A stretch of 64,000 nt of DNA, from NCBI GenBank assembly GCA_947581645.1, contig CANPVF010000159.1:2904-66903 (forward strand), written 5' to 3'. A program made the position numbers and the translations under genes. The first letter of the stretch is position 1, and the number at the start of each line of letters is the position of its first letter. The stretch is from Candidatus Caribbeanibacter nitroreducens (lineage in GTDB: Bacteria > Gemmatimonadota > Gemmatimonadetes > Palauibacterales > Palauibacteraceae). The notes beneath the pieces were generated by a model. It searched no databases and had not been told where the DNA came from. It saw nothing but the letters and a program-made list of their open reading frames with translations. Positions 27,676 to 45,081 of the stretch are shown here, piece after piece.

Positions 27676-28317
27676 CTACGGCCCCACCAGGCCGAGCCAG
27701 TAGATCCCGACGAACACCGAGAGCGCGGAGCAGCCCGCCAGCAGACCCGCGTAGGCGTTCCGCCCCGAGAGGGAGAGTCGCCGCCCGGCGTGACCCATCA
27801 GGGCGGCGTAGATCGACATCGCCGCCACGGTGCCGGCGGCGAAGAAGAGCAGATAGGCGATCGAGCCGAGACGGGTGGGAAGCGCCAGGGCCGGAAGCAC
27901 GCCCAGGACGTGGCCGGCCCCGGCCGTGCCGTGCAGCAGGCCGACGGCGAACGCCGCCCGTCCTTCCCGCCCGTGCAGCGCCTCCTGGTGACGCTCCGCG
28001 TCGTCGGGGCTCCGGAGGACGCGGATCACCGCGGTCAGCGCCCACAGCCCCACCGCCACGAGGCTGATGCCGACGGCTCGCTCGCTCCACGCCGTCACCT
28101 GCTCCATGGGGAGCGCCTCGCGCAGCAGCGCCGCGGCCAGCCCGATCACCATCACGCCGCCGGCGTGGCCGACGCCCCACCGGAATCCGGTGCGCCACGC
28201 TCCCGACTGGCGACTGGCGGCCAGGGGCGAGACCACCGCCAGGTGGTCGGCGCCGGCCAGCACGTGGCCGGCCCCCGCCACCAGCCCGATCAGCGCCCCC
28301 TCCAGCACGACGGTCAT
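27676..28317 (-). CDS. hupE: HupE/UreJ family nickel transporter
   Basis: 213 aa with 6 TM helices and the HupE signature H-x5-DH (GAGHVLAGADHLAV). Internal repeat with second His cluster (HGTAGAGH). Last gene of the hydrogenase operon, with a 4-bp overlap with the upstream gene. Confidence 0.7.
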   Translation of the reverse strand: MTVVLEGALIGLVAGAGHVLAGADHLAVVSPLAASRQSGAWRTGFRWGVGHAGGVMVIGLAAALLREALPMEQVTAWSERAVGISLVAVGLWALTAVIRVLRSPDDAERHQEALHGREGRAAFAVGLLHGTAGAGHVLGVLPALALPTRLGSIAYLLFFAAGTVAAMSIYAALMGHAGRRLSLSGRNAYAGLLAGCSALSVFVGIYWLGLVGP

Positions 28318-29162
28318 CGGGACACGTCCCCGCCGTCGAACTCGGGGCTCCGCTTCTCGAAGAACGCCGCCAGGCCCTCGGCGAAGTCCTCGCCGTCGGC
28401 GACCCGGGACAGGTTCTCCAGCTCGTCGTCCATGTGGTAATCCAGCTGGTCGATACCCGCCGCCTGGTGCACCAGCCGCTTCGCCACGGCGTAGGCCTCC
28501 GTGGGCCCGGAGGCCAGCTCCCGGGCCACGCTCCGCAGCTCGTCGTCGAACGCCTGCGCCGGCCACACGCGATTCACCAGCCCCATCTCGGCGGCCTCCG
28601 CGGCGTCGAGCCGGGGGTTCAGGAACACCAGCTCCAGCGCCTTCCGGAGGCCCAGGAGCCGGGGGAGGAAGAACGTGGAGCTCTCGGCCCCGGTGAGGCC
28701 CGTCTTGTGGTACGCCCACTCGAAGCGGGCGTCCTCCGAGGCGAAGACCAGGTCGCACGCCATGGCGATGCCGAAACCGCCGGCGGCCGCCATGCCGTCC
28801 ACACCGGCCAGGAAGGGCTTCGGCGCCCGCTTGATCTCCGAGATGGCGCTGTGGATGTACTCCAGGATCTCCTTGAAGGCGCGGCCGTGGCCGCCCTCCT
28901 CGGCGCCGACGCCCTCGGGCTGCAGATAGCCGAAGTCCTCGTCGTCGCCGTGGTCGCGGACGTACTTCAGGTCGGCGCCGCTGCAGAACACGCCGCCGCT
29001 CCCGCGGAGGATCACGCACCGGACCTCCTCCTCGCGGGAGAACTGGAGCCCGGCCTTCCGGAAGTCCTTCGCCGTGGCCACGTCCAGGGAGTTGAAGCGG
29101 TCCGGCCGGTCGATGGTGATGATCCCCACGGCACCGTCCCGCTCCATCCGGATGTTCTCCAT
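28314..29162 (-). CDS. enoyl-CoA hydratase/crotonase-fold protein, candidate C-terminal half of a split HypX
   Basis: Crotonase oxyanion motif VFCSGADLKY; 282 aa. Start at MENIRMERDG. The upstream in-frame extension is Gly/Arg junk. Lies between hypE and hupE directly after a formyltransferase gene. Confidence 0.7.
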   Translation of the reverse strand: MENIRMERDGAVGIITIDRPDRFNSLDVATAKDFRKAGLQFSREEEVRCVILRGSGGVFCSGADLKYVRDHGDDEDFGYLQPEGVGAEEGGHGRAFKEILEYIHSAISEIKRAPKPFLAGVDGMAAAGGFGIAMACDLVFASEDARFEWAYHKTGLTGAESSTFFLPRLLGLRKALELVFLNPRLDAAEAAEMGLVNRVWPAQAFDDELRSVARELASGPTEAYAVAKRLVHQAAGIDQLDYHMDDELENLSRVADGEDFAEGLAAFFEKRSPEFDGGDVSR

Positions 29163-29179
29163 GCCCTCCGCCCGCGCCG

Positions 29180-30040
29180 TCACGGTCGTCCCCCGCCCAC
29201 CACCGCCCGGAGGACGGCCGCCGACCCGGCGGGGCGCGCACCGGCGCGCCGCTCGTCCAGCTCCACCGGGGCCGGCGCACCGTCCACCGCGGCCCGACCG
29301 TCGCCCGTGACCCGGATCCGCCCCGCGGCCTCGAGCTCCAGGGTCCGGTCCAGGAGGGCTCCCCAGCTCGCCCTCATCATCCACTCCCGCTGGGCGTAGG
29401 CGTACGCCTTCAGCAGGTCCTCGGCCTCCCACTCACGCGCATCCGTCACCATCGGGTGGACCGGGAACGACCGGGAGAGCAGGAGCGGCGGCCCGACGTC
29501 CACCCGCTCCGTGGCCAGGTGCACGGTGCTTCGCGTCTCGGGCTCCCCGGCGAAGACCGCATCCCGTGTGGAGCGGAGCCCCCGGTAGAGCGGCACGCCG
29601 TCCCCGTCCCTGAGGGTCAGGTCGGCATCGTGGACGTTGAACACGCGGTCCGGGAACGCCGCCAGGAGCTCCCCGGTGGCGATCCACAGGTAGCCGCACA
29701 TGAGCACGGCCTCGGCGCCGGAAGCGTGGAGCCGGTCGACCAGGCGCCGGTCGAAGGCCTCCCGTGCTCCCCGGTCGCCGACGTCCGCCCCGCGCCGGCG
29801 GCAGAAAGCCTCGGGGCAGCGGACCTCCGTGGCGACGCCCGCCGACTCCGCCGCCGGGAGGGCGGAGCTCTCCGGGTCGCTGGCCACCACGGCCACGATC
29901 CGGTAGGGCGCGCCGCGTCCGGCGCTCCGCTCCAGCAACCGCTCGAGCCCCGGCGCACGGGCCGAGGTGAGCACCGCGACGCGCAGCGGGTCCCCCGCCG
30001 TGCGCCGTCCGTTCGTCGTACCGCCGGACACGTTCTCCAC
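29180..30040 (-). CDS. formyltransferase-fold protein (PurN/Fmt-like), candidate N-terminal half of a split HypX
   Basis: Aligns to PurN (VAVLTS...LERLL; CGYLWIATGELLAAFPDRVFNVHDADL with the conserved N-x-H; HLATERVDVGPPLL). GTG start (VENVSGG) 2 nt after the hypE stop. Confidence 0.65.
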   Translation of the reverse strand: MENVSGGTTNGRRTAGDPLRVAVLTSARAPGLERLLERSAGRGAPYRIVAVVASDPESSALPAAESAGVATEVRCPEAFCRRRGADVGDRGAREAFDRRLVDRLHASGAEAVLMCGYLWIATGELLAAFPDRVFNVHDADLTLRDGDGVPLYRGLRSTRDAVFAGEPETRSTVHLATERVDVGPPLLLSRSFPVHPMVTDAREWEAEDLLKAYAYAQREWMMRASWGALLDRTLELEAAGRIRVTGDGRAAVDGAPAPVELDERRAGARPAGSAAVLRAVVGGGRP

Positions 30041-30042
30041 CC

Positions 30043-31113
30043 CTAGCAGATCCGGGGGAGCGGTTCGCCCTGGGGCTCCGTCACCAGTCGCCGGCCGATG
30101 CCGGTGTCCAGCACCACCCGGCCCGGGTGCTCCGCGGCGACCTCGCCGACGATGGCGGCCCGTCCGCCGGCCGGATGCTCCCGGATGGCTTCCAGCACCG
30201 CCTCCGCCGACTCCGGCCGCACCCCCACGACCGCCTTCCCCTCGTTGGCGATGTGGAAGGGATCGAGCCCCAGCATCTCGGCCGCGGACCGCACCACGTC
30301 GGAGACGGGCACCGCCCTCTCCTCGATCACCACCGAGACGCCGGCCTTCTCGGCCATCTCGTGCAGGGCGCTGGCCACGCCGCCGCGGGTGGGGTCCTTG
30401 AGCGCGGTGATTCCGCCCCCGGCGGCCGCGAGCGCCCGGGCCACCAGGCCGTTGATCGGGGCCACGTCGGAGACCAGGTCGCCCCGGAGGTCCAGCTCGT
30501 GCCGGAGGGCCATGAGCGCGATCCCGTGGTCGCCGATGTCCCCGGTGAGGATGATCCGGTCGCCGGGCCGGAGCCCCGCGTCCCGGACCAGGGGCTCGGC
30601 GAACCCGACGCCGGTGGTGTTGATCACGACGCCGTCGATCTCGCCGCGGCCCATGACCTTGGTGTCTCCGGTGACGATCCTCGTCCCCGCCTCCCGACAC
30701 GTCTCCCGCATGGAGGCCTGGATCCGCTCCAGCTCCTCCCGGGCCAGCCCCTCCTCCGCGATGACCGAGGAGGTGAGCCCCAGCGGCTCGGCGGCCCCCA
30801 TCATGGCCAGGTCGTTCACCGTCCCGGCCACGGCCAGCCGGCCGATGTCGCCGCCCGGGAACCGGACGGGGTGGATCACGTGGGAGTCGGTGGTGAGGAC
30901 CAGCCAGCGGCCGTCGGGCAGACGGAAGGCGGCCCCGTCGTCCATGGCGGCGAGCCCCACCTCCCCGTCGCGCTCGTCCAGGAAGCCCGCCGCCAGCGTC
31001 TCCTCCACCAGCTGCCGCATGGCGCCGCCGCCGGCGCCGTGCTTCAGCGTGATCCGCTCGACGGCCGTGGCCGCCCCTCCGGCTCCTCCGTTTCTTCGGG
31101 CGGGTCCGCTCAT
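30043..31113 (-). CDS. hypE: hydrogenase expression/formation protein HypE
   Basis: AIR-synthase-like fold; conserved C-terminal ...PRIC. Start at MSGPARRNGG with a 4-bp overlap with hypD. Confidence 0.9.
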   Translation of the reverse strand: MSGPARRNGGAGGAATAVERITLKHGAGGGAMRQLVEETLAAGFLDERDGEVGLAAMDDGAAFRLPDGRWLVLTTDSHVIHPVRFPGGDIGRLAVAGTVNDLAMMGAAEPLGLTSSVIAEEGLAREELERIQASMRETCREAGTRIVTGDTKVMGRGEIDGVVINTTGVGFAEPLVRDAGLRPGDRIILTGDIGDHGIALMALRHELDLRGDLVSDVAPINGLVARALAAAGGGITALKDPTRGGVASALHEMAEKAGVSVVIEERAVPVSDVVRSAAEMLGLDPFHIANEGKAVVGVRPESAEAVLEAIREHPAGGRAAIVGEVAAEHPGRVVLDTGIGRRLVTEPQGEPLPRIC

Positions 31114-32294
31114 AGGTCCGGGTGTCCTCCGTACTGGTGCCAGATCTTGCAGGTGCCCTCGCTGCTCACCATGCAGGCGCCCACCGGGTTCTCCGGCGTG
31201 CACTCCTCGCCGAACAGCGAGCAGTCGTGCGGCGAGGAGCGGCCGGCCATGATGTCGCCGCAGATGCAGGCCTGCGTGAGCGGCGTCGGCGAGCCCCGCC
31301 GGAGCGACCCGACGTCGATGTCGAAGCGCCGGCGGGCGTCGACGCCGGCGTACTCGTCCCTGAGGCGCAGGTTGCCGTTGGGGACGTGGGCGATGCCCCG
31401 CCACTTGCCGCCGGTGGGCCGGAACACCTTCCACAGCTGCTCCTGGGCGTTCCGGTTGCCCTGCTCGGTGACGCACCGGGGGTACATGTTCACCACCCGC
31501 GGATCGTCGTCCCGGACGAGCTCCACCAGCTGGACCAGTCCCGCCAGCACGTCCAGCGGCTCGAAGCCGGCCACCACCACCGGGATGCCGTGCCGGTCCA
31601 CGAAGCGCTCGAAGAGCGCGGAGCCGGTGATCGTGGCGGCGTGCCCCGCTGCCAGGTATCCCTCGACCCGGGTGTGGGGCATCTCGGCCACGATCTCCAT
31701 GACCGGCGGGATGTACTTGTGGGCCGAGAGCACGGAGAAGTTGTCCGGCGGTTCGGCCAGCACCACCGCGGCCGTGGCCACGGCCGTCGTCTCGAAGCCG
31801 CTGGCGAAGAAGACCACCTCGTCGTCCGTGTCCCGCGCCAGCTCCACCGCCTGCGAGGCGCTGTAGACCACGTCCACCCGGGCCCCGTCGGCCTGGGCAT
31901 CGGCCAGCGACTGGACGGTGCCGGGCACATGGAGCATGTCGCCGTAGGTGGCGACCCGGACGCCCTGCCGGGCCAGGGCCACGGCCTCGTCGACCTCGGG
32001 CATGTCGGTGACGCAGACCGGGCAGCCCGGCCCCATGATCACGTCGAGCCCCTGCGGGAGGATGGTACGGATCCCGTACTTGGCGATGGACTGCTCGTGG
32101 CTCCCGCAGACGTGCATCACCGAGACCCGGTCGCGGTCCACCTCGCCCACGACTCGCTCCAGGGCTTCGGCCAGCGCCCGTGCCTTCTCGGGATCCCTGA
32201 ACTCGAGCTCGCGCGCCGACCGGCCCGCGGCGCCGCCGTCGGGTCCCTCCGTCGGTGGCGCGGCGGTCGGCTGTCCTCCGGGCGCGTCGCTCAT
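31110..32294 (-). CDS. hypD: hydrogenase formation protein HypD
   Basis: CGSHE (CGxH), GPGCPVC and C-terminal CxxC...C motifs. Confidence 0.9.
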   Translation of the reverse strand: MSDAPGGQPTAAPPTEGPDGGAAGRSARELEFRDPEKARALAEALERVVGEVDRDRVSVMHVCGSHEQSIAKYGIRTILPQGLDVIMGPGCPVCVTDMPEVDEAVALARQGVRVATYGDMLHVPGTVQSLADAQADGARVDVVYSASQAVELARDTDDEVVFFASGFETTAVATAAVVLAEPPDNFSVLSAHKYIPPVMEIVAEMPHTRVEGYLAAGHAATITGSALFERFVDRHGIPVVVAGFEPLDVLAGLVQLVELVRDDDPRVVNMYPRCVTEQGNRNAQEQLWKVFRPTGGKWRGIAHVPNGNLRLRDEYAGVDARRRFDIDVGSLRRGSPTPLTQACICGDIMAGRSSPHDCSLFGEECTPENPVGACMVSSEGTCKIWHQYGGHPDL

Positions 32295-32617
32295 CGGTTC
32301 CCCTCCGGACCGCGGGGCACGCCCGGCGTCGGGTCGGACGACGGCATGCTCGCCTGTTCGATCTCGTCGCGGACGTCCTCGGCCATCATGTCTCCTCCGG
32401 CCTCCTCCAGGAGCTCGCTGTAGAGGGCCAGCGTCTCTCCGATCTCGGCCTCCGGGATCTTGCGGATCGCGAAGCCCACGTGATTCAGGATGTAGTCCCC
32501 CGGCGACACCGGCTCGTCCACGACATCGAGCCGCGTCTCGCGCCGCACGCCCCAGAAGTCCACGACGGCGACGTCGCCCTTCACCTCGACCACCTTGCCC
32601 GGCACGCCCAGACACAT
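32291..32617 (-). CDS. hypC: hydrogenase assembly chaperone HypC/HupF family (with ~25-aa C-terminal extension)
   Basis: MCLGVPGKVVEV N-terminus (essential Cys2). ATGA overlap with hypD. Confidence 0.8.
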   Translation of the reverse strand: MCLGVPGKVVEVKGDVAVVDFWGVRRETRLDVVDEPVSPGDYILNHVGFAIRKIPEAEIGETLALYSELLEEAGGDMMAEDVRDEIEQASMPSSDPTPGVPRGPEGNR

Positions 32618-32631
32618 GTTCTCGCTCCTCT

Positions 32632-33324
32632 CTAGCTGGTGCCCAGCGACCCGCGGGCGTAGTTCCCGCTCCCGACTTCGGAACGGAGGAAGTCGCACCA
32701 CTCCTCCATGCCCTCGCCGTTCCGGGCGGACGTGAAGAAGAAGCGGAGGTCGGGATTGACCTCCCGCGCGTAGCTCACCGCCCGCTCGACGTCGAAGTCC
32801 AGGTGCGGGAGCAGGTCCATCTTCGTGATCACGGCGTACCGGGCGAGCCGGAACATCTTCGGGTACTTCACCGGCTTGTCCTCGCCCTCGGTCACCGAGA
32901 ACAGGACCACCTTCTCCTGCTCGCCCAGGTCCCAGCTCGCCGGGCAGACCAGGTTGCCCACGTTCTCGATGAACAGGAGCCGGGTCTCGTCGAGGTCCAG
33001 CGCGTCCAGCGCCTCGGAGACCTGACGTGCGTCCAGGTGGCACGCTCCGTCGGTGACCACCGCCTGGACGAGCCTCGGCGTGAGCCGCGCGATGCGGTTG
33101 GCGTCGTTCTCCGTCTGGACGTCGCCGGTGACGACGGCGATGGGGAACTCGGCGTCCAGCCGCTCCAGCGTGGCCTCCAGCAGGGCCGTTTTCCCGGATC
33201 CGGGCGAGGAGACGAGGTTGTAGGTCGTCACCCCCGCATCGGTGAGCCGGCGCCGGACGTCGGCCGCGAGCTCGTCGTTCTTCTTCATCACTTTCTCGCG
33301 CACCTGAATGCGGCGAACCGTCAT
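32632..33324 (-). CDS. hypB: hydrogenase nickel incorporation GTPase HypB
   Basis: G1 motif SSPGSGKT, CH metal site (GACHLDAR), G3/G4 motifs. No N-terminal CxxCGC/His-rich Ni-storage motif. True start may be the internal MKKNDELAAD. Confidence 0.9.
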   Translation of the reverse strand: MTVRRIQVREKVMKKNDELAADVRRRLTDAGVTTYNLVSSPGSGKTALLEATLERLDAEFPIAVVTGDVQTENDANRIARLTPRLVQAVVTDGACHLDARQVSEALDALDLDETRLLFIENVGNLVCPASWDLGEQEKVVLFSVTEGEDKPVKYPKMFRLARYAVITKMDLLPHLDFDVERAVSYAREVNPDLRFFFTSARNGEGMEEWCDFLRSEVGSGNYARGSLGTS

Positions 33325-33734
33325 CGGACACCCTTCCCCTGGTTCGAGTCTGCTCTGCTACCGTCTCCGGCACCGCGCGGCGGTCCGGCCTCGGAGGGCA
33401 GGGGCGCGTCGCCCAGCGGGCTCGGCCCGTTCCCGCCCCCGTCCGCCACCGCGGCCGTGCCGTCCCGGTCTCCGTCTCCGTCCTCGATCCCGTCCTCCAC
33501 GTCGATCCACGCCAGCCGCAGCACGTCCCCCCGGCAGCGCTCCAGCACCGGCCGGGCGTCGTCGAAGGGAGGCTCCGTGAGCACCGCCTGGAGACAGAAC
33601 TCCAGGGCGTCGATCACCACGCCCGCGCGATCGCCCACCTCCACGCCCACGGCCGAGACGCGCGGCAGGAGCTCCCGGTCCACCTGCTCGGCGGCCAGGC
33701 GTCCCACCTCCATGGCGAGGCTCATCTCGTGCAC
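33321..33734 (-). CDS. hypA: HypA-like hydrogenase nickel metallochaperone with degenerate zinc site
   Basis: N-terminus MHEMSLAMEV (M-H-E Ni-binding motif). Only one Cys pair region (LERCRGD); no second CxxC. Asp/Gly-rich tail. 4-bp overlap with hypB. Confidence 0.6.
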   Translation of the reverse strand: MHEMSLAMEVGRLAAEQVDRELLPRVSAVGVEVGDRAGVVIDALEFCLQAVLTEPPFDDARPVLERCRGDVLRLAWIDVEDGIEDGDGDRDGTAAVADGGGNGPSPLGDAPLPSEAGPPRGAGDGSRADSNQGKGVR

Positions 33735-33771
33735 CGGCGCCCCCCCGTCCCGTGTCGCATGGCCGTCCCGA

Positions 33772-34362
33772 TCACGCGCGACCCGGCTCGCCCGCCACGG
33801 GCTCCTCCGCGGGCCGGTGTTCGGCCCCGACGCCCCAGCTCCGGAGCCGGTCCACGGCGCGGATGACCAGGTCGTCGAGGCCGGCCACGGCCTCGGGGCT
33901 GAGGGCCGTCTCGGTGGCCAGCTCGGCGGGCTGGAGGCCCACGGCCACCGTCTCCTCCGGGAGCGTCCCCCGGAGCGAGGCCAGGGCCAGGACCTCCCGG
34001 ATGCCCACCTGGTGCGTCGAGATCTTGCCGTCCAGGAAGAGCGGGAGGTCGTCCCGCTCCAGGACCACCGTCTCGCCGGGCTCGTCGCCCACGTCGATGG
34101 CGTCCAGCAGGAGCAGCCGGTCGGCGTCCTCCACGGCGGGCAGGAGCATCATGCCCCACGTGCCGCCGTCCAGCAGCTCCACGTCGGGAGAGAGGCTCCA
34201 CTCCTCCCGCAGCCGGGCCAGCGCCGCCAGCCCGATCCCGTCGTCCGCCAGCAGGGGGTTGCCCAGCCCGATCACCACGACCCGCGAGCCGGCGCCGGGC
34301 GGGGCGTCTCCGGGTCGGGGCCGGCGTCCTCCACCGGCCTCACCCGGGTGCTCACTCCTCAT
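33772..34362 (-). CDS. hupD: hydrogenase maturation protease (HyaD/HupD family)
   Basis: VVVIGLGNPLLADDGIGL with conserved Asp/His metal ligands. Confidence 0.85.
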   Translation of the reverse strand: MRSEHPGEAGGGRRPRPGDAPPGAGSRVVVIGLGNPLLADDGIGLAALARLREEWSLSPDVELLDGGTWGMMLLPAVEDADRLLLLDAIDVGDEPGETVVLERDDLPLFLDGKISTHQVGIREVLALASLRGTLPEETVAVGLQPAELATETALSPEAVAGLDDLVIRAVDRLRSWGVGAEHRPAEEPVAGEPGRA

Positions 34363-35128
34363 CGACGAACTCCTGGTCCCGGGGCAGGAACCGGCCGCCG
34401 CTCACCATGGAGGAGACGGTGCCCGTCGATTCCGTCAGCTCCGCCCGGATGGTCAGGTAGACGTGGATCGGAATGAAGATGAGGAAGACCCACGTCAGGA
34501 CGTGGTGCACCAGGCGCGTGTACTGGACGCCGCCCAGGAGCCCGTTCACCCAGGAGAAGGCCGCGTAGAAGAAGCCGTCGGGATTGGCCTGTCCGTACAT
34601 GGCGAAGCCGGTGAGCACCATCACCACGGTCACCGCGTACAGGCCGGTGTAGGAAATCTGCTGGATGGGGTTGTGCCCCATGTACTCCGGCTCCTCGTCC
34701 CCGACCATCATGTAGTGCTTCACGATCTTCCACATGTTGACCCAGTCCTCCCGTCGGAACGGGAAGAGGGCCCGCCAGCTCTCGAACTTGTTGCCGACGA
34801 AGAGCCAGTAGACCCGGACGATGCCGGTGGCCACCAGCAGGCCGGCCGCCGCGAAGTGGATGAAGCGCATCCACCCCATCAGGTAGTGGTTGGCCGGCTC
34901 GCCAGTGGTCATGAAGTACGGGGCGCCGATGTAGAAGCCGGTGACGACGAGGGCGACGATGGCCACGGCGGCCACCCAGTGCATGGCGCGAATGGGCCAG
35001 TGCCACAGGTAGACCCACTCGTAGTCGCCCTCGGGCGGCCTCGGGATGGCGGCCAGACCGGGCTGCTCCGTCCGCTCGGGCTCGTGCGTGCTCTGGCGTC
35101 CCCCGCGTTCCTCCCGCTCGGTGCTCAC
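34352..35128 (-). CDS. hupC: Ni/Fe-hydrogenase b-type cytochrome subunit (HyaC/HupC/CybH)
   Basis: 4 TM helices with conserved haem-ligand His (WHWPIRAMHW, RFIHFAAAG, HHVLTWVFL). Confidence 0.85.
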   Translation of the reverse strand: MSTEREERGGRQSTHEPERTEQPGLAAIPRPPEGDYEWVYLWHWPIRAMHWVAAVAIVALVVTGFYIGAPYFMTTGEPANHYLMGWMRFIHFAAAGLLVATGIVRVYWLFVGNKFESWRALFPFRREDWVNMWKIVKHYMMVGDEEPEYMGHNPIQQISYTGLYAVTVVMVLTGFAMYGQANPDGFFYAAFSWVNGLLGGVQYTRLVHHVLTWVFLIFIPIHVYLTIRAELTESTGTVSSMVSGGRFLPRDQEFVDEE

Positions 35129-36936: not shown

Positions 36937-36939
36937 GGG

Positions 36940-38154
36940 TCACTCCCTCTCTTCCGCGTTCGTTTCGCCCCTCTCGGGCGAGCTCTCGCCGCCGCCCTGG
37001 TCCGCCACCGGCAGCTCCCGTCCCTTCTTCTTTTCCCGCATGCGCTGCACGCCCGTGGCGATCGCGTGCGCGCCCACACCGGCGGCCGCCCCCACGGCCA
37101 GCCCGAGGCCGATCTCGTCGGCCGTACGCTCGACGCCGAACCCGGCCACGCCGGGCAGCCTCTCGTAGAAGGGGGTCATGGAGTCCCAGAAGTAGGGCTC
37201 GGTGCACCCGATGCACGGGTGGCCGGCGCCGATGGGCCAGTCCGTGCCGGAGTTCCACTGGAAGATCGGGCATGGGGAGAACGTCGCCGGCCCCTTGCAG
37301 CCCACCTCGTACAGGCACCAGCCCCGCCGCGCGCCCTCGTCGTCGAACTCCTGCACGAACTGCCCGGCGTCGTAGTTGGCCCGCTTCGGGCACTGGTCGT
37401 GGATGCGGGCGCCGTAGGCGAAGAGCGGCCGCCCCTCGCCGTCCAGGTCCGGCATGCTCCCGAAGGTGAGGTAGTGCACCAGGGTGGCGGTGACGGTGTC
37501 CGCGATGGGCGGACAGCCCGCGAGGTTCACCACCGGCCTGTCCGTGACGATCTCGTCCGTCCGGACCGCACCGGTGGGATTCGGATCGGCGGCCTGGACG
37601 CTGCCGTAGTGGGCGCAGGCGCCCACCGCGATCACGCCGGCGGCGCCCTCGGCCGCCTCCACCAGAACGTCGTGGGCGGTGCGTCCCCCCATCGTGGTGT
37701 AGACGCCGCCCTCGTTCATGGGCACCGAACCGGTGACAACGAGCAGGTACTCGCCCCGCTTCTCCTCCATGGTCTGCTGCAGGACTTCCTCGGCCCGATG
37801 TCCGGCCGCCGCCATCAGCGTGTGCTGGTAGTCCAGCGACACCTTGTTCAGGATCAGGTCGCCGATGGTCGGCGACTCCGACCGGAGGACGCTCTCCACG
37901 CAGCCCGTGCACTCCTGCAGCTGCAGCCAGATGACGCTGGGCCGCTGCTGCTCGGAGAGGGACTGCATGATCGCGGGACCCATGGCGCTCCCGACCCCGA
38001 GGATCACGCCCATCTCTCCGCAGTAGGTCAGGAATTCCCGGCGGTTGATGCCCTGGCGCTCCAGGTTCTCGCCCAGGGTCTCGTCGTTCTTCCACGCGAA
38101 CTCGTTGGGGACGAACATCGCTGCCTCCCGGAATGATGGACGCTCCGGCGACAT
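36940..38154 (-). CDS. hupS: [NiFe]-hydrogenase small subunit (Tat-exported, C-terminal membrane anchor)
   Basis: Twin-arginine motif NRREFLTYCG, proximal-cluster motif QECTGCVES (CTGC, standard type), distal HxxC...C cluster, C-terminal TM helix GLGLAVGAAAGVGAHAIATGV. Confidence 0.9.
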   Translation of the reverse strand: MSPERPSFREAAMFVPNEFAWKNDETLGENLERQGINRREFLTYCGEMGVILGVGSAMGPAIMQSLSEQQRPSVIWLQLQECTGCVESVLRSESPTIGDLILNKVSLDYQHTLMAAAGHRAEEVLQQTMEEKRGEYLLVVTGSVPMNEGGVYTTMGGRTAHDVLVEAAEGAAGVIAVGACAHYGSVQAADPNPTGAVRTDEIVTDRPVVNLAGCPPIADTVTATLVHYLTFGSMPDLDGEGRPLFAYGARIHDQCPKRANYDAGQFVQEFDDEGARRGWCLYEVGCKGPATFSPCPIFQWNSGTDWPIGAGHPCIGCTEPYFWDSMTPFYERLPGVAGFGVERTADEIGLGLAVGAAAGVGAHAIATGVQRMREKKKGRELPVADQGGGESSPERGETNAEERE

Positions 38155-38483
38155 GCGCCGGTCGGAGAGGCCGGGGCCGGTCCGCGGGCTGCCACCCTCT
38201 CAAGCTCGCTTGGGAAGCTAGAGTCCGCGATAGGAGGCGTCTGTCGGGGCCCGCCCGGAGAGGAATGTGGGAGATTCCGCCGCGACGGTGTGGGGAGGCT
38301 CCCCGCGCCGGCCGAAAGGCACCGACGGCCGGTCGGGCGGCAGGCGACCTCCTCCCGCCGAGCGAACCGTGCGTTCGGATCCCTCCGGACGGGAGTGGCG
38401 CCGCTGGCGTGGGAAATCTCCCTACAGCAGGAGAGCGACAGCTCCCTCGCGCGCGGGACCTCGAAGCCCCCTATCCGGTTACA

Positions 38484-38503
38484 TGTCATCTGATTGGATG
38501 ACA
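38484..38503. promoter_or_regulatory. perfect inverted repeat TGTCATC-N6-GATGACA in the divergent hydrogenase/cytochrome promoter region
   Basis: acaTGTCATCtgattgGATGACAgta sits ~330 nt upstream of hupS and ~210 nt upstream of the first cytochrome gene. 7-bp perfect arms. AT-richer than the surroundings. Confidence 0.35.
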
Positions 38504-38712
38504 GTATCCGGCGGGCAACCATCCCCCGCCCACGGGACAGGCGGGTTGATCGAGGAAAAAGGGCTTGATTAGCTTGTGGGCGGTCAATGTTCTGGGCCGC
38601 GTCCGTCACAGGATGCTGACGCCCTGGGAACGGGGAGTCCGGCGTCTCCTGCGGGAGAGCGCTCGGTGGGGACGGACTGCCGTGAGACGGGAAACAGACG
38701 AAGGAGTGGGCC

Positions 38713-40293
38713 ATGACGACGGAGAGCGGGAAACGGATCCGTAGAGCCCTTCTTCTCCTGCCGGTCGCCGCAGCACTCGCGCTGACCGGGTGCGTGGACG
38801 AGAAGGTCGTCTTCCAGGAGCGTCCCCTCTTCGAGCAGCCCGCCAGCGCGGCCGAGGGCTTCCTGGGCTACAGCCAGCAGGACGCCAAGCTCACGGTCTG
38901 CGGCAACTGCCACGTCGGCACCCAGAACGCCTGGGAGGAGTCGGGCCACGCCGCCGCCTGGGAGGGGCTGCAGAGCAGTGGGGGCGCCCAGGACTTCTGC
39001 GAGGGCTGCCACACGGTGAACGAGCGGGGCAACTCCTTCGAGGGCGACGCCGGCTTCGCGGCCATGGGCTCCGACCGCTACCACGACGTCCAGTGCGAGT
39101 CGTGCCACGGCCCGGGCCAGACCCACGTCGAGAACCCCGACGGAAACCAGCCCCTGGCCAGCATCCAGGCCGGGGTGGACCTGGAGACCGGATGCGGTGA
39201 GTGCCACTCCGGCGCCCACCATCCCTTCACCAACCAGTGGGCCCAGTCCGCCCACGGCATCGCCTCGGTGAAGGACCGGCCGTACGTGAGCGGCTCCTGC
39301 CTGGACTGCCACGAGGGCGAGGCCGCCATGCAGAACACGTTCGGCGAGACGGCCAACTTCGTCGGCAAGGACGACGACCAGCGCTCGTCCATCACCTGCG
39401 CCGTCTGCCACGATCCCCACGGCTCCGAGAACGCCGCTCAGCTCCGCGCCCCGGTGGACGTGGCCAGCGAGGAGCATCTCTGTGTGCGGTGCCACTCGCA
39501 GCGGGGCACGCCCGGACTGACGCAGCCCAACCTGCACGGCCCCCACGGCTACCAGGGCAACCTGGTGCTGGGCGAGGACATCGGGTGGATCCCGCCCAAC
39601 GCGGACCTCAGCGGCACCTTCGCCTCCACCCACGGTACCGAGGGCAACCCGGAGCTGTGCGCCACCTGCCACGTGGCACAGCGGACCATCACCGACGAGG
39701 AGGGCGACTTCCAGGTGGAGGCCGTGGGCCACACCTTCGAGGCCACCCCCTGCCTGGACGACCAGGGCCTGCCGCGTGAGAACTGCACCATCCAGGAGCA
39801 GAACTTCGAGGCCTGCGCCACCAGCGGGTGTCACGGCAACGCCGAGACGGCCCGGAACCTGTTCGTCACGTCGAAGAACGGAATCAACGACCTGCTGGAT
39901 CAGCTCTGGACGGACACCGACGACGATCACAACCTGGAGACCACCGACGACGGACTGCTGCCCCAGGTTCTGGCCGCGCAGGGCGAGGGCGAGATCAACC
40001 CGGCCGACAGCACGTTCACCACGGCCGAGGGCGCGCTGTGGAACGCCCAGGTGGCGCACACCCAGGACCGGCTGTACTGGGGCGACTTCACCGTCGGCTC
40101 GAACCCGACCCACTTCGGGGCCCACAAGGGCAGCGGCGACGGCGTCCACAACCCGTTCCTGCTGGAAGCCCTGCTCAGGGCCTCCATCGACGCGGTGGAG
40201 AACGAGTACGGCGTGACCGCCAGCGCCACCGTCCAGCGCTTCTCCACACCTCCGCCCGGGATCGACGTCAACCTCAGCAGCGGCTCCGAGTAA
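38713..40293 (+). CDS. lipoprotein multihaem cytochrome c (~9 haems)
   Basis: Lipobox LALTGC. CGNCH, CEGCH, CESCH, CGECH, CLDCH, CAVCH, CVRCH, CATCH plus CATSGCH (CxxxxCH). Confidence 0.85.
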   Translation: MTTESGKRIRRALLLLPVAAALALTGCVDEKVVFQERPLFEQPASAAEGFLGYSQQDAKLTVCGNCHVGTQNAWEESGHAAAWEGLQSSGGAQDFCEGCHTVNERGNSFEGDAGFAAMGSDRYHDVQCESCHGPGQTHVENPDGNQPLASIQAGVDLETGCGECHSGAHHPFTNQWAQSAHGIASVKDRPYVSGSCLDCHEGEAAMQNTFGETANFVGKDDDQRSSITCAVCHDPHGSENAAQLRAPVDVASEEHLCVRCHSQRGTPGLTQPNLHGPHGYQGNLVLGEDIGWIPPNADLSGTFASTHGTEGNPELCATCHVAQRTITDEEGDFQVEAVGHTFEATPCLDDQGLPRENCTIQEQNFEACATSGCHGNAETARNLFVTSKNGINDLLDQLWTDTDDDHNLETTDDGLLPQVLAAQGEGEINPADSTFTTAEGALWNAQVAHTQDRLYWGDFTVGSNPTHFGAHKGSGDGVHNPFLLEALLRASIDAVENEYGVTASATVQRFSTPPPGIDVNLSSGSE

Positions 40294-40318
40294 CGGCACG
40301 GGAGCGGGAATCGGTGAC

Positions 40319-41062
40319 GTGCGCGGTTCCGCCACCGGGAGCGCGCTCCTCCCGATCCTGACGGCCCTGGCCGCGGTGGCCCTCCACCCCGGGATCGCCG
40401 CGGCGCAGGAGGCGGAGGCCGGCGCCGGCGACACGACGTTCGTCGCCGACGGGGACACGGTACCCTTCCGGCACGCCGAGCACACGGAGGTGGCGTGCAC
40501 CGACTGCCACTCCACGGAGGAGGGGCACGGGACGCTCACGGTCACGTCGATCCGCGGCTGCCGCTCCTGCCACCACTCCGGGTCCACCGCGGAGCCCTGC
40601 ACCGACTGCCACGAGCGTTCGGAGCTCCGCGCGGCGGGGTCGTATCCCGTCACCAGCGACCTGGTGATGTCGGTGGACACGGTCCGCGGACGCGATCTCC
40701 CCTTCGATCACGCCTCCCACGAGGATCTCGAGTGCGCGGAGTGCCACTCGGACGGAACCGAGCTGTCGGCCGGCTCCGTCCGGTGCGCCGAGTGCCACGA
40801 GGAGCACCACGGCGCCGAAGTGCGATGCGTCTCCTGTCACCGGGAAGCACCGGAGGAGACCCACACCCTGGCCGTCCACGCCACGTGCTCGGGGAGCGGC
40901 TGCCACGAGGCCGCGACCCTGCCGGTCACGACCAGGACCATGGCGCGTAGCCCGCGGAACGTCTGTCTCACCTGCCACCAGGACCAGGTAGACCACCGTC
41001 CCGGGGAGCGGTGCGCCCGCTGTCACCTCCTCCCGGAGGGAGAGGGAGGCGGTACGCCGTGA
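40319..41062 (+). CDS. periplasmic multihaem cytochrome c (~9 haems)
   Basis: Signal peptide (ALLPILTALAAVALHPGIAAAQE). CTDCH, CRSCH, CTDCH, CAECH, CAECH, CVSCH, CLTCH, CARCH plus CSGSGCH. Confidence 0.8.
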   Translation: MRGSATGSALLPILTALAAVALHPGIAAAQEAEAGAGDTTFVADGDTVPFRHAEHTEVACTDCHSTEEGHGTLTVTSIRGCRSCHHSGSTAEPCTDCHERSELRAAGSYPVTSDLVMSVDTVRGRDLPFDHASHEDLECAECHSDGTELSAGSVRCAECHEEHHGAEVRCVSCHREAPEETHTLAVHATCSGSGCHEAATLPVTTRTMARSPRNVCLTCHQDQVDHRPGERCARCHLLPEGEGGGTP

Positions 41063-42537
41063 CCCGCACGCCGCACATCCCACGGCGCCGGTGGCTCCTG
41101 TCCCTGGGCGTTGGGTTCCTGGCGCTGGCCCTGCTGCCGGGGGCGGTCCCGGCCCAGGACTTCCGCGGACACGCCTGGGCCACGGCCCGCACGGTGGAGG
41201 TCCGCCCCATCGCCCAGGACACGGTGGCCCGGAGCCAGGTCACGGAGCTGCCCGGCGGCGGGTTGGCCTACCAGGGTCGGCCGGTGACGTGCAGGGGCGA
41301 CGAGTGCACCTTCTACCGCTCGTCCCCCTCCGAGCACGCGCTGCACACGACCCAGGACCTCCGCTTCACCGCCTGGGGCTTCGGCCTGGAGGGCCTGTCC
41401 GCCACGGTGCACGTCCGGGGCCGGCAGGACGTGGGCGGCGACTTCACCTGGCCCCGGAGCGACGACCCCTTCGACGCCATCGTCGCTTACGCGCAGTACA
41501 ACCGGCCCGATCTGCGCGTACGGCTGGGGCGCCAGCGGACCCGGTCGGGCCTGGGCTTCGCCAGCTACGACGGGGCCAGCGTGTTGGCCGAGCCCCTGGA
41601 CGGCCTGTCGCTGGAGGCCTACGGCGGCCGGAGCCTGGCCCGCGGCCTGCACGATCCGCGGAACGAGGCCCTGGAGGGCGTGGAGGACTTCCTGCCGGAC
41701 CGTGACGCCTGGCTCCTGGGCGCCGCGGCCACCGTGGAGGGAGGGGCCGGGAGCTCGCTCACGGCCCGGTATCAGAGGGAGATCTTCTCCAACCGTGCCG
41801 CGCTGCTCTCCGAGCGGGCCTCGGTCGACGGCCGCACCTCCGTCCTGGCGCCGGTGCGCCTCACGGGCTCGATGGACTACGACTTCGCGCGGGGAGAGAT
41901 CGGCAAGTCGCACCTGTCGGCGGAGCTCCCGGTGACGGACGACCTGGTCCTGGAAGCCCGCGGTCGCCGCTACATGCCCTACTTCGAGCTGTGGACCATC
42001 TGGGGCCTGTTCAGCCCGGTGGCCTATCACGAGGGGCGGCTCGGCGCATCGTGGTCGGCCACCTCCGACCTCGGTCTGCAGGTGAGCGGGGGCGCCCGGA
42101 GCTACGAGGACACCCACACCGACCCGATCCTGGGCCCGGTGGAGGACGACGCGTGGTTCGCCTCCGCCTCCGGCCGCTGGTCGCCGGCGTCGGACCTGCG
42201 CCTCCACGGCCGCTACCGGGTGGAGCGCGGCGCCGGGGCCTTCCTCAGCTCCGGAGAGCTGGGCGGTCGGTGGCGAGCCTCCGACCTGCTGGCGCTGCGC
42301 CTGGACCTGACGGCGAGCCAGCAGATCGAGGAGTTCCGGATCGGCGAAGGCATGCTGGCCGGCGGCACGGCATCCGTTGAGCTCCGTCCGCTGGACGGTG
42401 TGCGGCTGGACACGGGCGTCTCCGTGTACCGCCAGTACTTCGACAACCGCCCCAGCGCCGTCGACTGGAATCAGCTCCGCGGGTGGAGCACCCTGCGCCT
42501 GGACCTGGGCGGCGACCCCGCGCTGGAGGGGCGCTGA
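41059..42537 (+). CDS. predicted outer-membrane beta-barrel protein (porin-cytochrome conduit candidate)
   Basis: GTG start overlapping the previous stop (GTGA). Signal peptide (RRRWLLSLGVGFLALALLPGAVPAQD). ~490 aa of alternating amphipathic beta-strands rich in Gly/Arg/aromatics with Y/F/W at strand ends. Terminal residues are ...DPALEGR rather than the classic C-terminal aromatic. Confidence 0.6.
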   Translation: MTRTPHIPRRRWLLSLGVGFLALALLPGAVPAQDFRGHAWATARTVEVRPIAQDTVARSQVTELPGGGLAYQGRPVTCRGDECTFYRSSPSEHALHTTQDLRFTAWGFGLEGLSATVHVRGRQDVGGDFTWPRSDDPFDAIVAYAQYNRPDLRVRLGRQRTRSGLGFASYDGASVLAEPLDGLSLEAYGGRSLARGLHDPRNEALEGVEDFLPDRDAWLLGAAATVEGGAGSSLTARYQREIFSNRAALLSERASVDGRTSVLAPVRLTGSMDYDFARGEIGKSHLSAELPVTDDLVLEARGRRYMPYFELWTIWGLFSPVAYHEGRLGASWSATSDLGLQVSGGARSYEDTHTDPILGPVEDDAWFASASGRWSPASDLRLHGRYRVERGAGAFLSSGELGGRWRASDLLALRLDLTASQQIEEFRIGEGMLAGGTASVELRPLDGVRLDTGVSVYRQYFDNRPSAVDWNQLRGWSTLRLDLGGDPALEGR

Positions 42538-42540
42538 CCG

Positions 42541-44286
42541 GTGGAGACCCGCGCCCGGACCTCCGTCCGCGTCACCGCCCTCGCGCTCGCGCTGGGGGTC
42601 GTCGCCCTGGCCGGCGCGGTGGCGTACGCCGGGAGCGACGCGGCCTCCGCGGCGGCACTCGCGGACCCCGCGCCGACGCCGTCGACGGCGCGCGGCGGAG
42701 GGGCGGAACCGGCCGCCGCCGACACCTCGGAGGGCTTCCCGCACGAGGAGCACGCGGGACTGTTCGCCCTGTGCACGGGGTGCCACGGGGGAATCGGCCG
42801 CGGCGACACGGCCTCCTTCTACCCGGAGCCGGAGTCCTGCGCCAACTGCCACGACGGGGAGCAGGAGGAACGGGTGGAGTGGGCGGGGCCGGAGCGCCGG
42901 GTCAGCGGGCTCACCTACGACCACGGTGAGCACGCCGCCGAGCTGGAGCGGGAGGGCGAGGAGCCGGCCGCCTGCGAGTCGTGCCACACGCCGGCCGGCG
43001 CGACGCGCATGGCGGTGGCCCGGCGGGCCGTACCGGAGCGGTGCCTGAGCTGTCACGAGCACGAGGCCCGGGACCACTACGTGGACGCCAGCTGCGCCAC
43101 CTGCCACCGGCCGCTGGCCGAGACAGGCTTCGGCCGTGCTCGCATCGCTTCCCTGCCCGAGCCGGACGACCACGACCGTAGCGCCTTCCTGGCCGAGGCC
43201 CACGGCGAGTCGGCGGAGCGCACGGTGACCACCTGCCAGACCTGCCATACGCAGGAGCGCTGCACCAGCTGCCACGTGGAGGGTTCGGAGCGGGAGGCGG
43301 TGGCCTCGATGCCCGTCGCGCCGGCCGGGATGGAGCTTCCCGACCTCGCCGCCCGCTACCCGACGCCGGAGACCCACGAGTCGGAGGGCTGGCTGGACGC
43401 GCACGGCGAGCGGGCCCGCCCCGGTGAGTGCTCCACCTGCCACACGCGCCAGAGCTGCACGACCTGTCACCGCGACGTTCCCTCTTCCGCCGTGGCCCGG
43501 CTGCCGGACGCCGGGGAGACGGACGCGCCGGGCGTCGAGGTGCACCGCCGCGCCCCGGCGTCCCACCGCTCGCTCGACTTCCCGACGGACCACGGCGACC
43601 TGGCGGCCGCCGATCCGGGGAGCTGCACGTCCTGCCACACGGAGGCCACCTGCACCGACTGCCACGCGGGGGGCGTGGCCGGCGCCGGTGACGCGGCGGG
43701 ACGGCGGAGCTCGCCGGCGGTGGGCTCGCCCGCCAGCGCGGGCGGGGTCGGGGGAGGCCCGTCCCCCGGGGGGTGGACGGGCGGTCCGGCCGTCCCTGCC
43801 CGGGACACCACTCATGCCGACACCACCGTCGCGGACACGAGCTCCGACGGAGACGCGACGGCCACGCCGTGGCCCGGCGCCACCCCGCGGAGCGAGCCCG
43901 GCGGCTTCCACCCCGAGAACTTCATGGCGCGGCACGCCTCCGCCGCGTACGGGAACCGCATGGAGTGCTCGACGTGCCACAGCACGGGAGCCTTCTGCCG
44001 GGAGTGCCACCAGCAGACCGGCATGGGCAGCAGCGGCCGCATCGGACCGGGCTTCCATGACGCCCAGCCCCTCTGGCTGCTGCGCCACGGACAGGCGGCG
44101 CGCCAGTCGCTCGAGAGCTGCGCCAGCTGCCATCGCCAGAGAGACTGCATCCAGTGCCATTCCATCACGGGAGCATTCAGCGTGAGCCCCCACGGACCGG
44201 AGTTCGACGCCCAGCAGTACGCCGACCGGAACCGGCAGGTGTGCCTCGCCTGCCACCTCTCGGATCCCCTGGGAGGTGGCTCGTGA
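42541..44286 (+). CDS. multihaem cytochrome c (16 CxxCH)
   Basis: Signal peptide. 16 canonical CxxCH in two blocks separated by an ~80-aa Gly/Ala/Ser/Thr low-complexity linker. Confidence 0.85.
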   Translation: METRARTSVRVTALALALGVVALAGAVAYAGSDAASAAALADPAPTPSTARGGGAEPAAADTSEGFPHEEHAGLFALCTGCHGGIGRGDTASFYPEPESCANCHDGEQEERVEWAGPERRVSGLTYDHGEHAAELEREGEEPAACESCHTPAGATRMAVARRAVPERCLSCHEHEARDHYVDASCATCHRPLAETGFGRARIASLPEPDDHDRSAFLAEAHGESAERTVTTCQTCHTQERCTSCHVEGSEREAVASMPVAPAGMELPDLAARYPTPETHESEGWLDAHGERARPGECSTCHTRQSCTTCHRDVPSSAVARLPDAGETDAPGVEVHRRAPASHRSLDFPTDHGDLAAADPGSCTSCHTEATCTDCHAGGVAGAGDAAGRRSSPAVGSPASAGGVGGGPSPGGWTGGPAVPARDTTHADTTVADTSSDGDATATPWPGATPRSEPGGFHPENFMARHASAAYGNRMECSTCHSTGAFCRECHQQTGMGSSGRIGPGFHDAQPLWLLRHGQAARQSLESCASCHRQRDCIQCHSITGAFSVSPHGPEFDAQQYADRNRQVCLACHLSDPLGGGS

Positions 44287-44288
44287 CG

Positions 44289-44846
44289 ATGGACCGCGTG
44301 CGACAGTCCCCCGGCGGACGGCCGCGGCTCGCCGCCGTGACCGCGGTCCTCCTGGTGGCCCTCCTCCCGGTCGTCGCGGGATGCGGCGGAGAGGGCGGAG
44401 GGGCCGGCGACGGGAGCGGCGAGAGCCGCTTCTCCATCGGCGGGCGCGGGCTCAACGAGGCCGTGGACAGCGTACGCTCCTCCCGGCGCCGGCCCCCGAC
44501 CGGAGGGATGGGCGCCGGGAGCGGCGCCTCCCAACGCTCGAGCCTGCCGCCGGAGATCCAGTCCGCCCTGGACAGCGGCAACGTGGCCTACCGGGCCGGG
44601 AACTACCGCGCGGCCCTTGAGCAGTTCGAGTCGCTGGCCGAGGAGCATCCCGACGTCCGGGCCGCCTGGTTCGGGGTCTTCATGGCCCACCGGGCCCTGG
44701 GGAACACCGCCGCCGCCGACAGCGCCATGCGGCGAGCCGGCATGGGCTCCTCCGACGCCACGGAGCTGCACGGATCGGCGGCCGACAGCGGGACCAGCAC
44801 CGCCCCGCATCCTCCCATGACCGACACCACGGACTCGCCGATCTGA
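44289..44846 (+). CDS. TPR-like lipoprotein
   Basis: Start overlaps the previous stop. Lipobox VVAGCGGEG. YRAGNYRAALEQFESLAEEHPDVRAAWFGVFMAHRALGN is a TPR-like helix pair. Confidence 0.6.
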   Translation: MDRVRQSPGGRPRLAAVTAVLLVALLPVVAGCGGEGGGAGDGSGESRFSIGGRGLNEAVDSVRSSRRRPPTGGMGAGSGASQRSSLPPEIQSALDSGNVAYRAGNYRAALEQFESLAEEHPDVRAAWFGVFMAHRALGNTAAADSAMRRAGMGSSDATELHGSAADSGTSTAPHPPMTDTTDSPI

Positions 44847-45081
44847 CGTCCCCGTCGGGTGCGCGTCCCGACGGCCCTTCCCGCCCGGCCCGCCCTCCGC
44901 GTGGGAAGTCTCCCCACATCGGACCTCCCCGATTCCCGCCGAGACCGATCCCGCTGCTCCCGACAGATCCCCGGGCCCCTCGGCCCTACGTTCCCGACGG
45001 AATTTCGGCCCGGCAGCGTCCTCCTCGGCGGCACGGACGCCGCCGGGCCGCGCTGCGGACCATCCGGAACGGACGCTCTCC

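Follow-up and report, generated by a model that had tools for sequence, protein, structure and literature searches.

A conduit-like cluster of multiheme cytochrome and β-barrel genes in Gemmatimonadota, with a recurrent [NiFe]-hydrogenase neighbor

We describe a gene cluster in a 64,000-nt stretch of DNA, hereafter the window, from Candidatus Caribbeanibacter nitroreducens (Palauibacterales, Gemmatimonadota; contig CANPVF010000159.1, positions 2,904 to 66,903), which encodes three multiheme cytochromes (cyt1, cyt2, and cyt3), a large β-barrel, and a tetratricopeptide repeat (TPR) lipoprotein, and which is placed back to back with the operon of a membrane-bound [NiFe]-hydrogenase. We consider it probable that the cytochrome/barrel cluster is a trans-outer-membrane conduit, and the best reading of it is as a variant of the porin–cytochrome theme that draws on the menaquinone pool and has H2 among its donors; the hydrogenase would then be one of several possible quinone-pool donors and not an obligate part of the conduit. 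That the whole path from H2 to an acceptor outside the cell forms a selected functional unit we hold to be slightly less likely than not. Our broadest proposal is tentative: that the cluster represents an undescribed porin–cytochrome system of Gemmatimonadota, which occurs in at least 364 species, is centered on a new barrel family and a surface lipoprotein of OcwA-like type, and has a hydrogenase beside it in several lineages (once in a co-directional array), which may permit H2-fueled mineral or extracellular respiration, or reverse H2 evolution driven by a mineral or a cathode. Gene calls in the window, whose GC content is about 72%, were based on third-position GC and frame, domains were assigned with Pfam and NCBIfam profiles, and solved relatives were sought among PDB sequences. 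A first-pass annotation of this DNA had described two divergently transcribed gene sets, an observation that the Pfam and NCBIfam profiles uphold with minor corrections. Of its interpretation, the conduit-like cluster and the link to a NapC-type gene stand, whereas common regulation of the two sets is unsupported; nor do the data support an obligate coupling of the sets or MtrB/PioB membership of the barrel.

The gene at 41059–42537 (+) encodes a member of an unannotated family whose AlphaFold2 (AF2) model, computed from an alignment of 34 homologs, is all-β, with 22 long strands and a few short ones (predicted local distance difference test score, pLDDT, of 82). This confident model, a plug-less barrel of ~22–24 strands, agrees with the earlier prediction of an outer-membrane barrel at this position, and we are confident in the predicted assignment of the product as a large outer-membrane β-barrel; the fold of the barrel alone does not reveal what passes through it. 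Searches of Pfam (E ≤ 0.01) and NCBIfam (E ≤ 0.1) return no match, the MtrB/PioB model TIGR03509 included, and a family profile (34 homologs) run against PDB sequences gives no match at E ≤ 10, not even to MtrB (6r2q_B); as these searches were empty, we dropped MtrB/PioB and every other named porin family as an assignment. A 100% identical protein from a metagenome-assembled genome (MAG) of Candidatus Palauibacterales is annotated in the database as a hypothetical protein. In layout the barrel is MtrB/PioB-like, being large, plug-less, and encoded directly after a periplasmic multiheme cytochrome gene, with its GTG start overlapping the TGA of cyt2 as GTGA. The family comprises more than 582 proteins in a database clustered at 90%, and in a set of 1.84 billion proteins it has 542 representatives after clustering at 50% identity; it occurs in 364 GTDB species genomes, and every named member seen belongs to Gemmatimonadota. 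Its two most conserved motifs, EPRxEALxGxEDFxPDR and YFELWTIWGFFSPV, are at residues 196–213 and 305–321 (window ~41644–41697 and 41971–42021), in loops that AF2 models at low confidence, and they may be lumen-lining or cytochrome-contact elements.

The first gene of the plus-strand set, cyt1 (38713–40293, +), encodes a nonaheme lipoprotein cytochrome with the lipobox LTGC, eight CxxCH motifs, and one Cx4CH motif, which we regard as OcwA-like and as a putative terminal or surface reductase. More than 3,200 proteins make up its family, and among 34 diverse homologs the lipobox cysteine (Cys27), the nine heme motifs, and nine additional histidines are invariant; judged from the alignment, these extra histidines would be enough for bis-His ligation of all nine hemes. 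Neither CxxCK nor another atypical catalytic motif is present in cyt1. The family profile matches, among PDB sequences, OcwA (6i5b; 1e-11, a partial match of 47 bits), 6qvm (2e-11), and MtrA (6r2q_A; 3e-9), the alignment to OcwA consisting of several partial segments that include the C-terminal helices. The 6qvm entry is probably OmhA of Carboxydothermus ferrireducens, given that its length of 681 aa equals that of the gene in PMC7829351.

The remaining proteins of the set include two further cytochromes. The small periplasmic cytochrome cyt2 (40319–41062, +; 247 aa) has a signal peptide, eight plus one heme motifs, F-x-H-x-x-H motifs, and c7/c3-type modules (PF02085, PF14522). The protein encoded by cyt3 (42541–44286, +) is predicted to be Sec-exported without a lipobox, carries 16 CxxCH motifs, and matches Cytochrome_C7, Paired_CXXCH_1, and, weakly (32.6 bits), MtrC/MtrF domain II–IV; it is a putative wire through the periplasm or the barrel. 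The c7/c3 modules and paired CxxCH motifs of cyt2 and cyt3 are, at the sequence level, typical of electron wires. The conserved last gene of the cluster (44289–44846, +) encodes the TPR lipoprotein (TPR_16, TPR_14; lipobox VAGC). The plus-strand genes are thus those already named in the first-pass annotation (a 9-heme lipoprotein, a 9-heme cytochrome, the barrel, a 16-heme cytochrome, and the TPR lipoprotein), which had also named a grouping of the cytochromes with soluble catalytic enzymes as a ground for refutation; they resemble cytochromes of electron transfer and terminal reduction (OcwA, the probable OmhA, MtrA, c7/c3 modules, and MtrC domain II/IV).

A fourth cytochrome gene, 12 kb from the others (25176–26582, −), encodes an NrfH/NapC-type 11-heme membrane protein, a putative menaquinol dehydrogenase (PF03264, 28.4 bits against a cut-off of 24.1). 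Two N-terminal hydrophobic helices are followed by CVSCHVM (CxxCHxM), and the protein matches the solved NrfH (2j7a_C, E 3.9e-6); with 11 hemes and 55 bits against TIGR03153, under the cut-off of 134, it is not an NrfH equivalog. ImcH was ruled out as an identity, for the protein does not have the Cx3CH next to three helices that forms the ImcH signature (PMC6295460). With its 11 motifs included, 45 heme motifs are counted in 19 kb, in line with the earlier estimate of about 45.

The association of these genes holds across the phylum. We scanned loci by tblastn with the window proteins in the best 80 of the 364 matching GTDB species genomes, one locus (L001) being the ENA copy of the window's own contig. 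The barrel is found among multiheme cytochrome genes in 80 of 80 loci and is followed by cyt3, or part thereof, in 79; the TPR gene is present in most, and the NapC-like gene is inside the cluster in 54. The usual order, on a single strand, is cyt1, NapC-like, cyt2, barrel, cyt3, TPR. About 15 loci have a short form, cyt1-barrel-cyt3-TPR, to which the long form adds the NapC-like gene and cyt2. The 4-bp overlap between the stop of cyt2 and the start of the barrel gene recurs in 51 of 63 loci, despite barrels that are 40–50% identical to that of the window, and by analogy such conserved coupling is the pattern expected of 1:1 complex partners such as mtrA-mtrB. Given the flanking cytochromes in every locus and this overlap, the association of the barrel with multiheme cytochromes is effectively obligate. 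The gene at 25176–26582, which the first-pass annotation had named as the entry point for electrons, is therefore a genuine member of the cluster that has been displaced in the window, because it is inside the cluster in the majority of loci just given. Two of the loci, L005 and L024, come from the same MAG (SRP195330_co1_41) and are paralogous clusters with barrels ~50% identical and a NapC-type gene divergent from cyt1 in each; they represent either a within-genome duplication of the cluster or a mixed bin.

The hydrogenase is a less constant neighbor. Genes for its small and large subunits, HupS and HupL, are within 10 kb of the barrel gene in 7 of the 80 species, distributed over three barrel clades and three architectures. 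The arrangement is divergent with the NapC-like gene displaced in the window and L006; divergent with the NapC-like gene inside the cluster or absent in L051, L065, and L076; and co-directional, with hupL-cytb-hycI-hypABFCDE followed by cyt1-barrel-cyt3-TPR, in L007, L010, and L067, whose barrels are only 62–63% identical to one another. Reciprocally, in 80 metagenome loci with relatives of HupL, of which ~27 were informative (at least 2 kb upstream of HupS), cluster genes are next to HupS in 5–6. The chance expectation is ~0.4 in 80, a generous figure that assumes one such hydrogenase per genome placed at random in ~4 Mb. Since the observed frequency is 7 in 80, the adjacency of hydrogenase and cluster is real and recurrent, and its conservation in some relatives answers the ground for refutation set earlier, that no relative shares the synteny; it is nevertheless a minority arrangement and easily lost.

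The ease of loss is illustrated by L005, which shares ~87% nucleotide and 92% barrel identity with the window. There, blastn joins window 25675–26504, within the NapC-like gene, to 38765 onward, within cyt1, across ~415 bp, and it likewise joins window 44832 to 53585. L005 consequently has neither a 12.2-kb block, composed of the hydrogenase operon and a MenA-like gene, nor an 8.7-kb V-type ATPase operon. Because L005 nests in barrel similarity between the window and L006 (86% barrel identity), both of which have the two blocks, loss in L005 appears more parsimonious than gain in the window. A search around the 12-kb block for signatures of a mobile element found neither tRNA genes nor meaningful repeats, direct or inverted, at its flanks.

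The V-type ATPase operon directly follows the cytochrome cluster (45082–53533, +) and encodes subunits I, c, E, C/AC39, F, A, B, and D. Its subunit I gene is the divergent neighbor of HupS in 7 of the ~27 informative hydrogenase loci and is found upstream of cyt1 in L055. Together with the absence of the operon from L005, these placements suggest that the three modules (the hydrogenase, the cytochrome cluster, and the V-ATPase) travel as neighbors that can replace one another.

No shared operator was found to accompany this physical adjacency. The two gene sets of the window are separated by a shared divergent intergenic region at 38119–38712, given before as 558 bp (38155–38712); the region stands as described, whereas its length becomes 594 bp with the shorter, 392-aa HupS of the source-contig gene call, the longer open reading frame extending to 38154. 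An AT-richer patch of the spacer contains a perfect palindrome, TGTCATC-TGATTG-GATGACA (38484–38503), that is present in no other fetched locus save L001 and is absent from L006 too. A scan of the spacer for promoter and terminator consensus sequences, sigma-70-like ones included, found none. A different palindrome, TCCGTA-N4-TACGGA, is located 100–200 bp upstream of cyt1 in ~30 of the 80 loci (L034, L038, L041, L045, L052, L056, L057, L061, L065, L073–L077, L084, and others), among them L065 and L076, where it falls in the spacer that HupS and cyt1 share, and we regard it as a candidate operator for the cytochrome cluster. The spacer of the window does not contain it, and none is found upstream of HupS in hydrogenase-only loci. 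We therefore rejected a shared operator, as the palindrome of the window is specific to the contig and TCCGTA-N4-TACGGA is missing from both the window spacer and the stand-alone hydrogenase loci. In the absence of a shared palindrome, the common regulation of both operons proposed earlier is unsupported, and we treat it as conjecture.

The minus-strand operon encodes a group-1 membrane-bound [NiFe] uptake hydrogenase that faces the periplasm. HupS (36940–38118, −; TIGR00391, 444 bits; PF14720, PF01058) is a Tat-exported small subunit with the Tat motif NRREFL, the proximal-cluster motif ECTGC, and a C-terminal membrane helix (transmembrane-like segment 336–354); the ECTGC motif argues against the six-Cys, O2-tolerant 1d type. 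HupL, the large subunit (35125–36936, −; PF00374, NiFeSe_Hases, 774 bits), has as its nearest solved structure the membrane-bound enzyme of Allochromatium vinosum (3myr_B, E 1.5e-230). These are followed by a Ni/Fe-hydrogenase b-type cytochrome that would serve as the quinone reductase anchor (34352–35128, −; PF01292; TIGR02125, 190 bits against a cut-off of 121.5) and a maturation endopeptidase of the HycI/HyaD type (33772–34362, −; PF01750, E 4.6e-25). The maturation genes are hypA (33321–33734, −; Pfam HypA), hypB (32632–33324, −; cobW), hypC (32291–32617, −; HupF_HypC), hypD (31110–32294, −; HypD), and hypE (30043–31113, −; AIRS/AIRS_C). HypA keeps the N-terminal MHE nickel motif without the zinc-finger half (no CxxC pairs), as does its counterpart in the distant relative L003 (2502–2762). 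No hypF was found in the operon or in the rest of the window; in L003 it sits between hypB and hypC.

Three further genes complete the operon. After hypE come a formyltransferase-family protein (29180–30040, −; Formyl_trans_N, E 4e-16), resembling an N-terminal half of HypX, and an enoyl-CoA hydratase/crotonase-family protein (28314–29162, −; ECH_1, E 6e-49), resembling a C-terminal half. Of the earlier designation of a split HypX, two adjoining domain genes after hypE remain, whereas similarity to a solved HypX does not: for the formyltransferase the best PDB match is PurN, with no HypX entry at E ≤ 0.001, and for the crotonase ordinary crotonases are best, with HypX absent among the 60 matches listed. 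The pair also follows hypE in L123 and L157, and L106 shows the formyltransferase alone at a contig end. The last gene (27676–28317, −) encodes a HupE/UreJ-like membrane protein, a putative nickel permease by weak assignment. It has five to six hydrophobic segments, and its earlier label of HupE has as its basis GHVLAGADH (H-x3-G-x-DH), which resembles the HPxxGxDH signature, and a match to HupE_UreJ_2 (PF13795; 17.1 bits, E 0.0045) that is under the cut-off of 24.5; an NCBIfam search gave no match. The operon thus has 12 genes with mixed junctions (4-bp overlaps at five, an 11-bp overlap at one, and gaps of 2–37 nt at the other five), not 11 genes with 4-bp overlaps as first counted.

Between the NapC-type gene and the hydrogenase operon, and within the block missing from L005, is a gene for a MenA-like (UbiA-family) 1,4-dihydroxy-2-naphthoate prenyltransferase (26709–27653, +; PF01040), whose best NCBIfam matches are all MenA, each below its trusted cut-off. 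Beyond the NapC-type gene, on the side that faces away from the hydrogenase operon, 16466–22373 (−) and 22589–25012 (−) encode a PAS/LytS-type histidine kinase, a weakly matched β-propeller (YncE/cytochrome d1-like), and components of resistance–nodulation–division (RND) efflux (OEP, HlyD-like, AcrB-like).

Based on what is established for HydABC-type hydrogenases, NrfH/CymA, and MtrCAB, we posit the following route. HupSL would oxidize H2 in the periplasm, and the b-type cytochrome would pass the electrons to menaquinone with protons drawn from the cytoplasm. The NrfH-type cytochrome would re-oxidize menaquinol on the periplasmic side, so that these two steps would form a proton-motive redox loop. 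Electrons would then be carried by cyt3 and cyt2, one of them sheathed by the barrel, to cyt1, which would reduce an acceptor that lies outside the cell or is poorly soluble, for example metal oxides, humics, electrodes, or partner cells.

Several observations weigh against this proposal, and they bear on its two halves differently. With regard to the hydrogenase, within 10 kb of the cluster a hydrogenase is missing in 73 of the 80 loci, and the majority of related hydrogenases likewise lack a cluster in their vicinity, findings that do not support an obligate coupling of hydrogenase and conduit. In L005, the closest relative, the NapC-like gene is beside cyt1 with no hydrogenase between them, and in no palindrome search did the two operons share an operator. 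Moreover, the presence of the formyltransferase and crotonase genes is a hint of maturation under aerobic conditions, in which case O2 respiration may be the main outlet of H2 oxidation. These points are taken up by a reading that we hold to be unlikely but of some weight, in which the conduit is real and the position of the hydrogenase has no specific meaning, the modules of a flexible respiratory island, V-ATPase included, being shuffled, acquired, and lost jointly and linked by the quinone pool alone. The low frequency of adjacency (~20% of hydrogenase loci in the reciprocal sample), the loss of the hydrogenase and V-ATPase blocks from L005 at the same junctions, the V-ATPase as an alternative divergent neighbor of HupS, and a cyt1-upstream palindrome found neither before stand-alone hydrogenases nor, as a conserved operator, in the window spacer are all as this reading would predict. 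It accounts less well for an adjacency that exceeds the generous chance expectation more than 15-fold and spans three barrel clades and three gene orders, one of which, a co-directional array of 13 genes, has been retained by three genomes in spite of the divergence of their barrels.

With regard to the conduit itself, the lack of an MtrB/PioB match for the barrel and the generic nature of its structural matches, which are those of large barrels at large, count against our proposal, as do several properties of cyt1. Its profile also matches c554, HAO, octaheme nitrite reductase (ONR), and NrfB, if more weakly, which places it in the c554/NrfA/OcwA superfamily, where soluble-substrate enzymes are found; its AF2 model is poor (pLDDT 62), with ONR as the best Foldseek match at a non-significant E of 0.05; and lipoproteins face the periplasm by default, so that the surface location of the cytochromes is a prediction. 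It is conceivable, if improbable, that the cluster serves respiration in the periplasm by reducing an acceptor that is soluble or crosses membranes (such as nitrite, hydroxylamine, sulfite, tetrathionate, or a metal(loid) oxyanion). Here cyt1 would be the catalytic enzyme, anchored at the periplasmic side of the outer membrane, the NrfH-type protein would be its quinol dehydrogenase, and the barrel would be a porin for substrate or product. An NrfH-like partner is typical of NrfA systems, and OcwA itself reduces nitrite and hydroxylamine (PMC6703420). However, cyt1 has none of the atypical catalytic motifs sought and enough invariant histidines outside its heme motifs to make every heme bis-His, its top matches are surface metal reductases and MtrA, the 25 wire-type hemes of cyt2 and cyt3 would be superfluous to a periplasmic enzyme, and the coupling of a cytochrome gene to that of a plug-less barrel of this size is not known from Nrf, Hao, or Otr loci. 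Less probable again is an inward conduit like MtoAB/PioAB, by which electrons would enter via the barrel/cytochrome complex from sources such as Fe(II), cathodes, reduced minerals, or partner cells, the NapC-type protein would run in reverse to the quinone pool, and the hydrogenase would be a parallel donor or an H2-evolving sink. In principle, porin–cytochrome systems can work in both directions (PMC6295460). A single island could also bring together H2 and Fe(II), each a lithotrophic donor, and among the functions encoded by Palauibacterales are oxidases and the respiration of nitrate, nitrite, and N2O, which could accept such electrons (PMC10469786). Genes for carbon fixation, on the other hand, are not reported from this order (PMC10469786). 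Against it, too, NrfH-type proteins are known as quinol oxidizers and the closest characterized relatives of cyt1 are reductases; the sequence holds no sign of the direction of flow. An outward conduit fed from the menaquinone pool therefore remains our preferred reading.

Gemmatimonadota are abundant and mostly uncultured bacteria, common in soils, sediments, and sponges, and we know of no recognized electroactive members. Some Palauibacterales have been proposed to respire metals with H2 based on hyaABCD alone (PMC10469786), and a term search of the main text of that article finds no multiheme cytochromes, decahemes, or Mtr-type components. In keeping with the earlier remark that no description of such a supercluster was known to its author, a full-text literature search found neither a porin–cytochrome cluster in Gemmatimonadota nor a supercluster of hydrogenase and porin–cytochrome genes; generic screens of MAGs for porin–cytochrome systems exist (e.g., PMC13264449), and such loci may be flagged there without discussion. 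The cluster offers a concrete, testable molecular route for the published proposal of H2-dependent metal respiration (PMC10469786). If our reading is correct, extracellular electron transfer extends to this mostly uncultured phylum, and structural work gains a barrel family that is new as well as a terminal reductase of OcwA type from a diderm. The recurrent and easily lost adjacency of hydrogenase, conduit, and V-type ATPase would also constitute a natural experiment on the assembly of respiratory modules.

Among known systems, the cluster can be compared first with MtrCAB and CymA of Shewanella. Both have the gene of a heme-dense periplasmic cytochrome just upstream of, and coupled to, that of a large plug-less barrel, along with a lipoprotein multiheme cytochrome and a quinol dehydrogenase of the NapC/NirT family, and at the level of sequence cyt1 is similar to MtrA (E 3e-9) and cyt3 weakly to MtrC domain II/IV. 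The differences are considerable: the barrel of the window has ~22–24 strands instead of 26 and does not match MtrB/PioB (TIGR03509), heme counts are 9, 9, 16, and 11 compared with 10, 10, and 4, the cluster lipoprotein is OcwA-like and not MtrC-like, a TPR lipoprotein is conserved, and the quinol dehydrogenase is normally encoded inside the cluster. To the OmaB/OmbB/OmcB and Ext systems of Geobacter the cluster is likened by its composition, with a porin-like barrel, a c7-type periplasmic multiheme cytochrome, and lipoprotein cytochromes, and by the variation of that composition between paralogous clusters; unlike it, those clusters encode no NapC-type quinol dehydrogenase and, to our knowledge, do not adjoin hydrogenase operons.

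The predicted inner-membrane part resembles the NrfH and HydABC-type loops of Wolinella and Desulfovibrio, in that HupSL with its cytochrome b would reduce menaquinone and an NrfH-type protein with a CxxCHxM first heme would re-oxidize menaquinol, a redox loop that is established for the HydABC-type and NrfH families; the protein of the window differs in having 11 heme motifs and two predicted helices compared with four hemes and one helix. Finally, cyt1 resembles OcwA of Thermincola potens (6I5B) at the sequence level in its nine heme motifs, in an N-terminal part that is c554-like, and in helices at the C-terminus that align to the OcwA helix bundle. The match covers OcwA only in part (47 bits), and cyt1, unlike OcwA, is a diderm lipoprotein encoded with a barrel; its nine invariant extra histidines would argue against its having the two open-coordination hemes of OcwA. 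OcwA, which is related to enzymes of the NrfA family (PMC6703420), is, like OmhA, a cell-surface terminal reductase for Fe(III) minerals (PMC6703420, PMC7829351), and it falls in a subclade of nonahemes from Gram-negative bacteria (PMC7829351).

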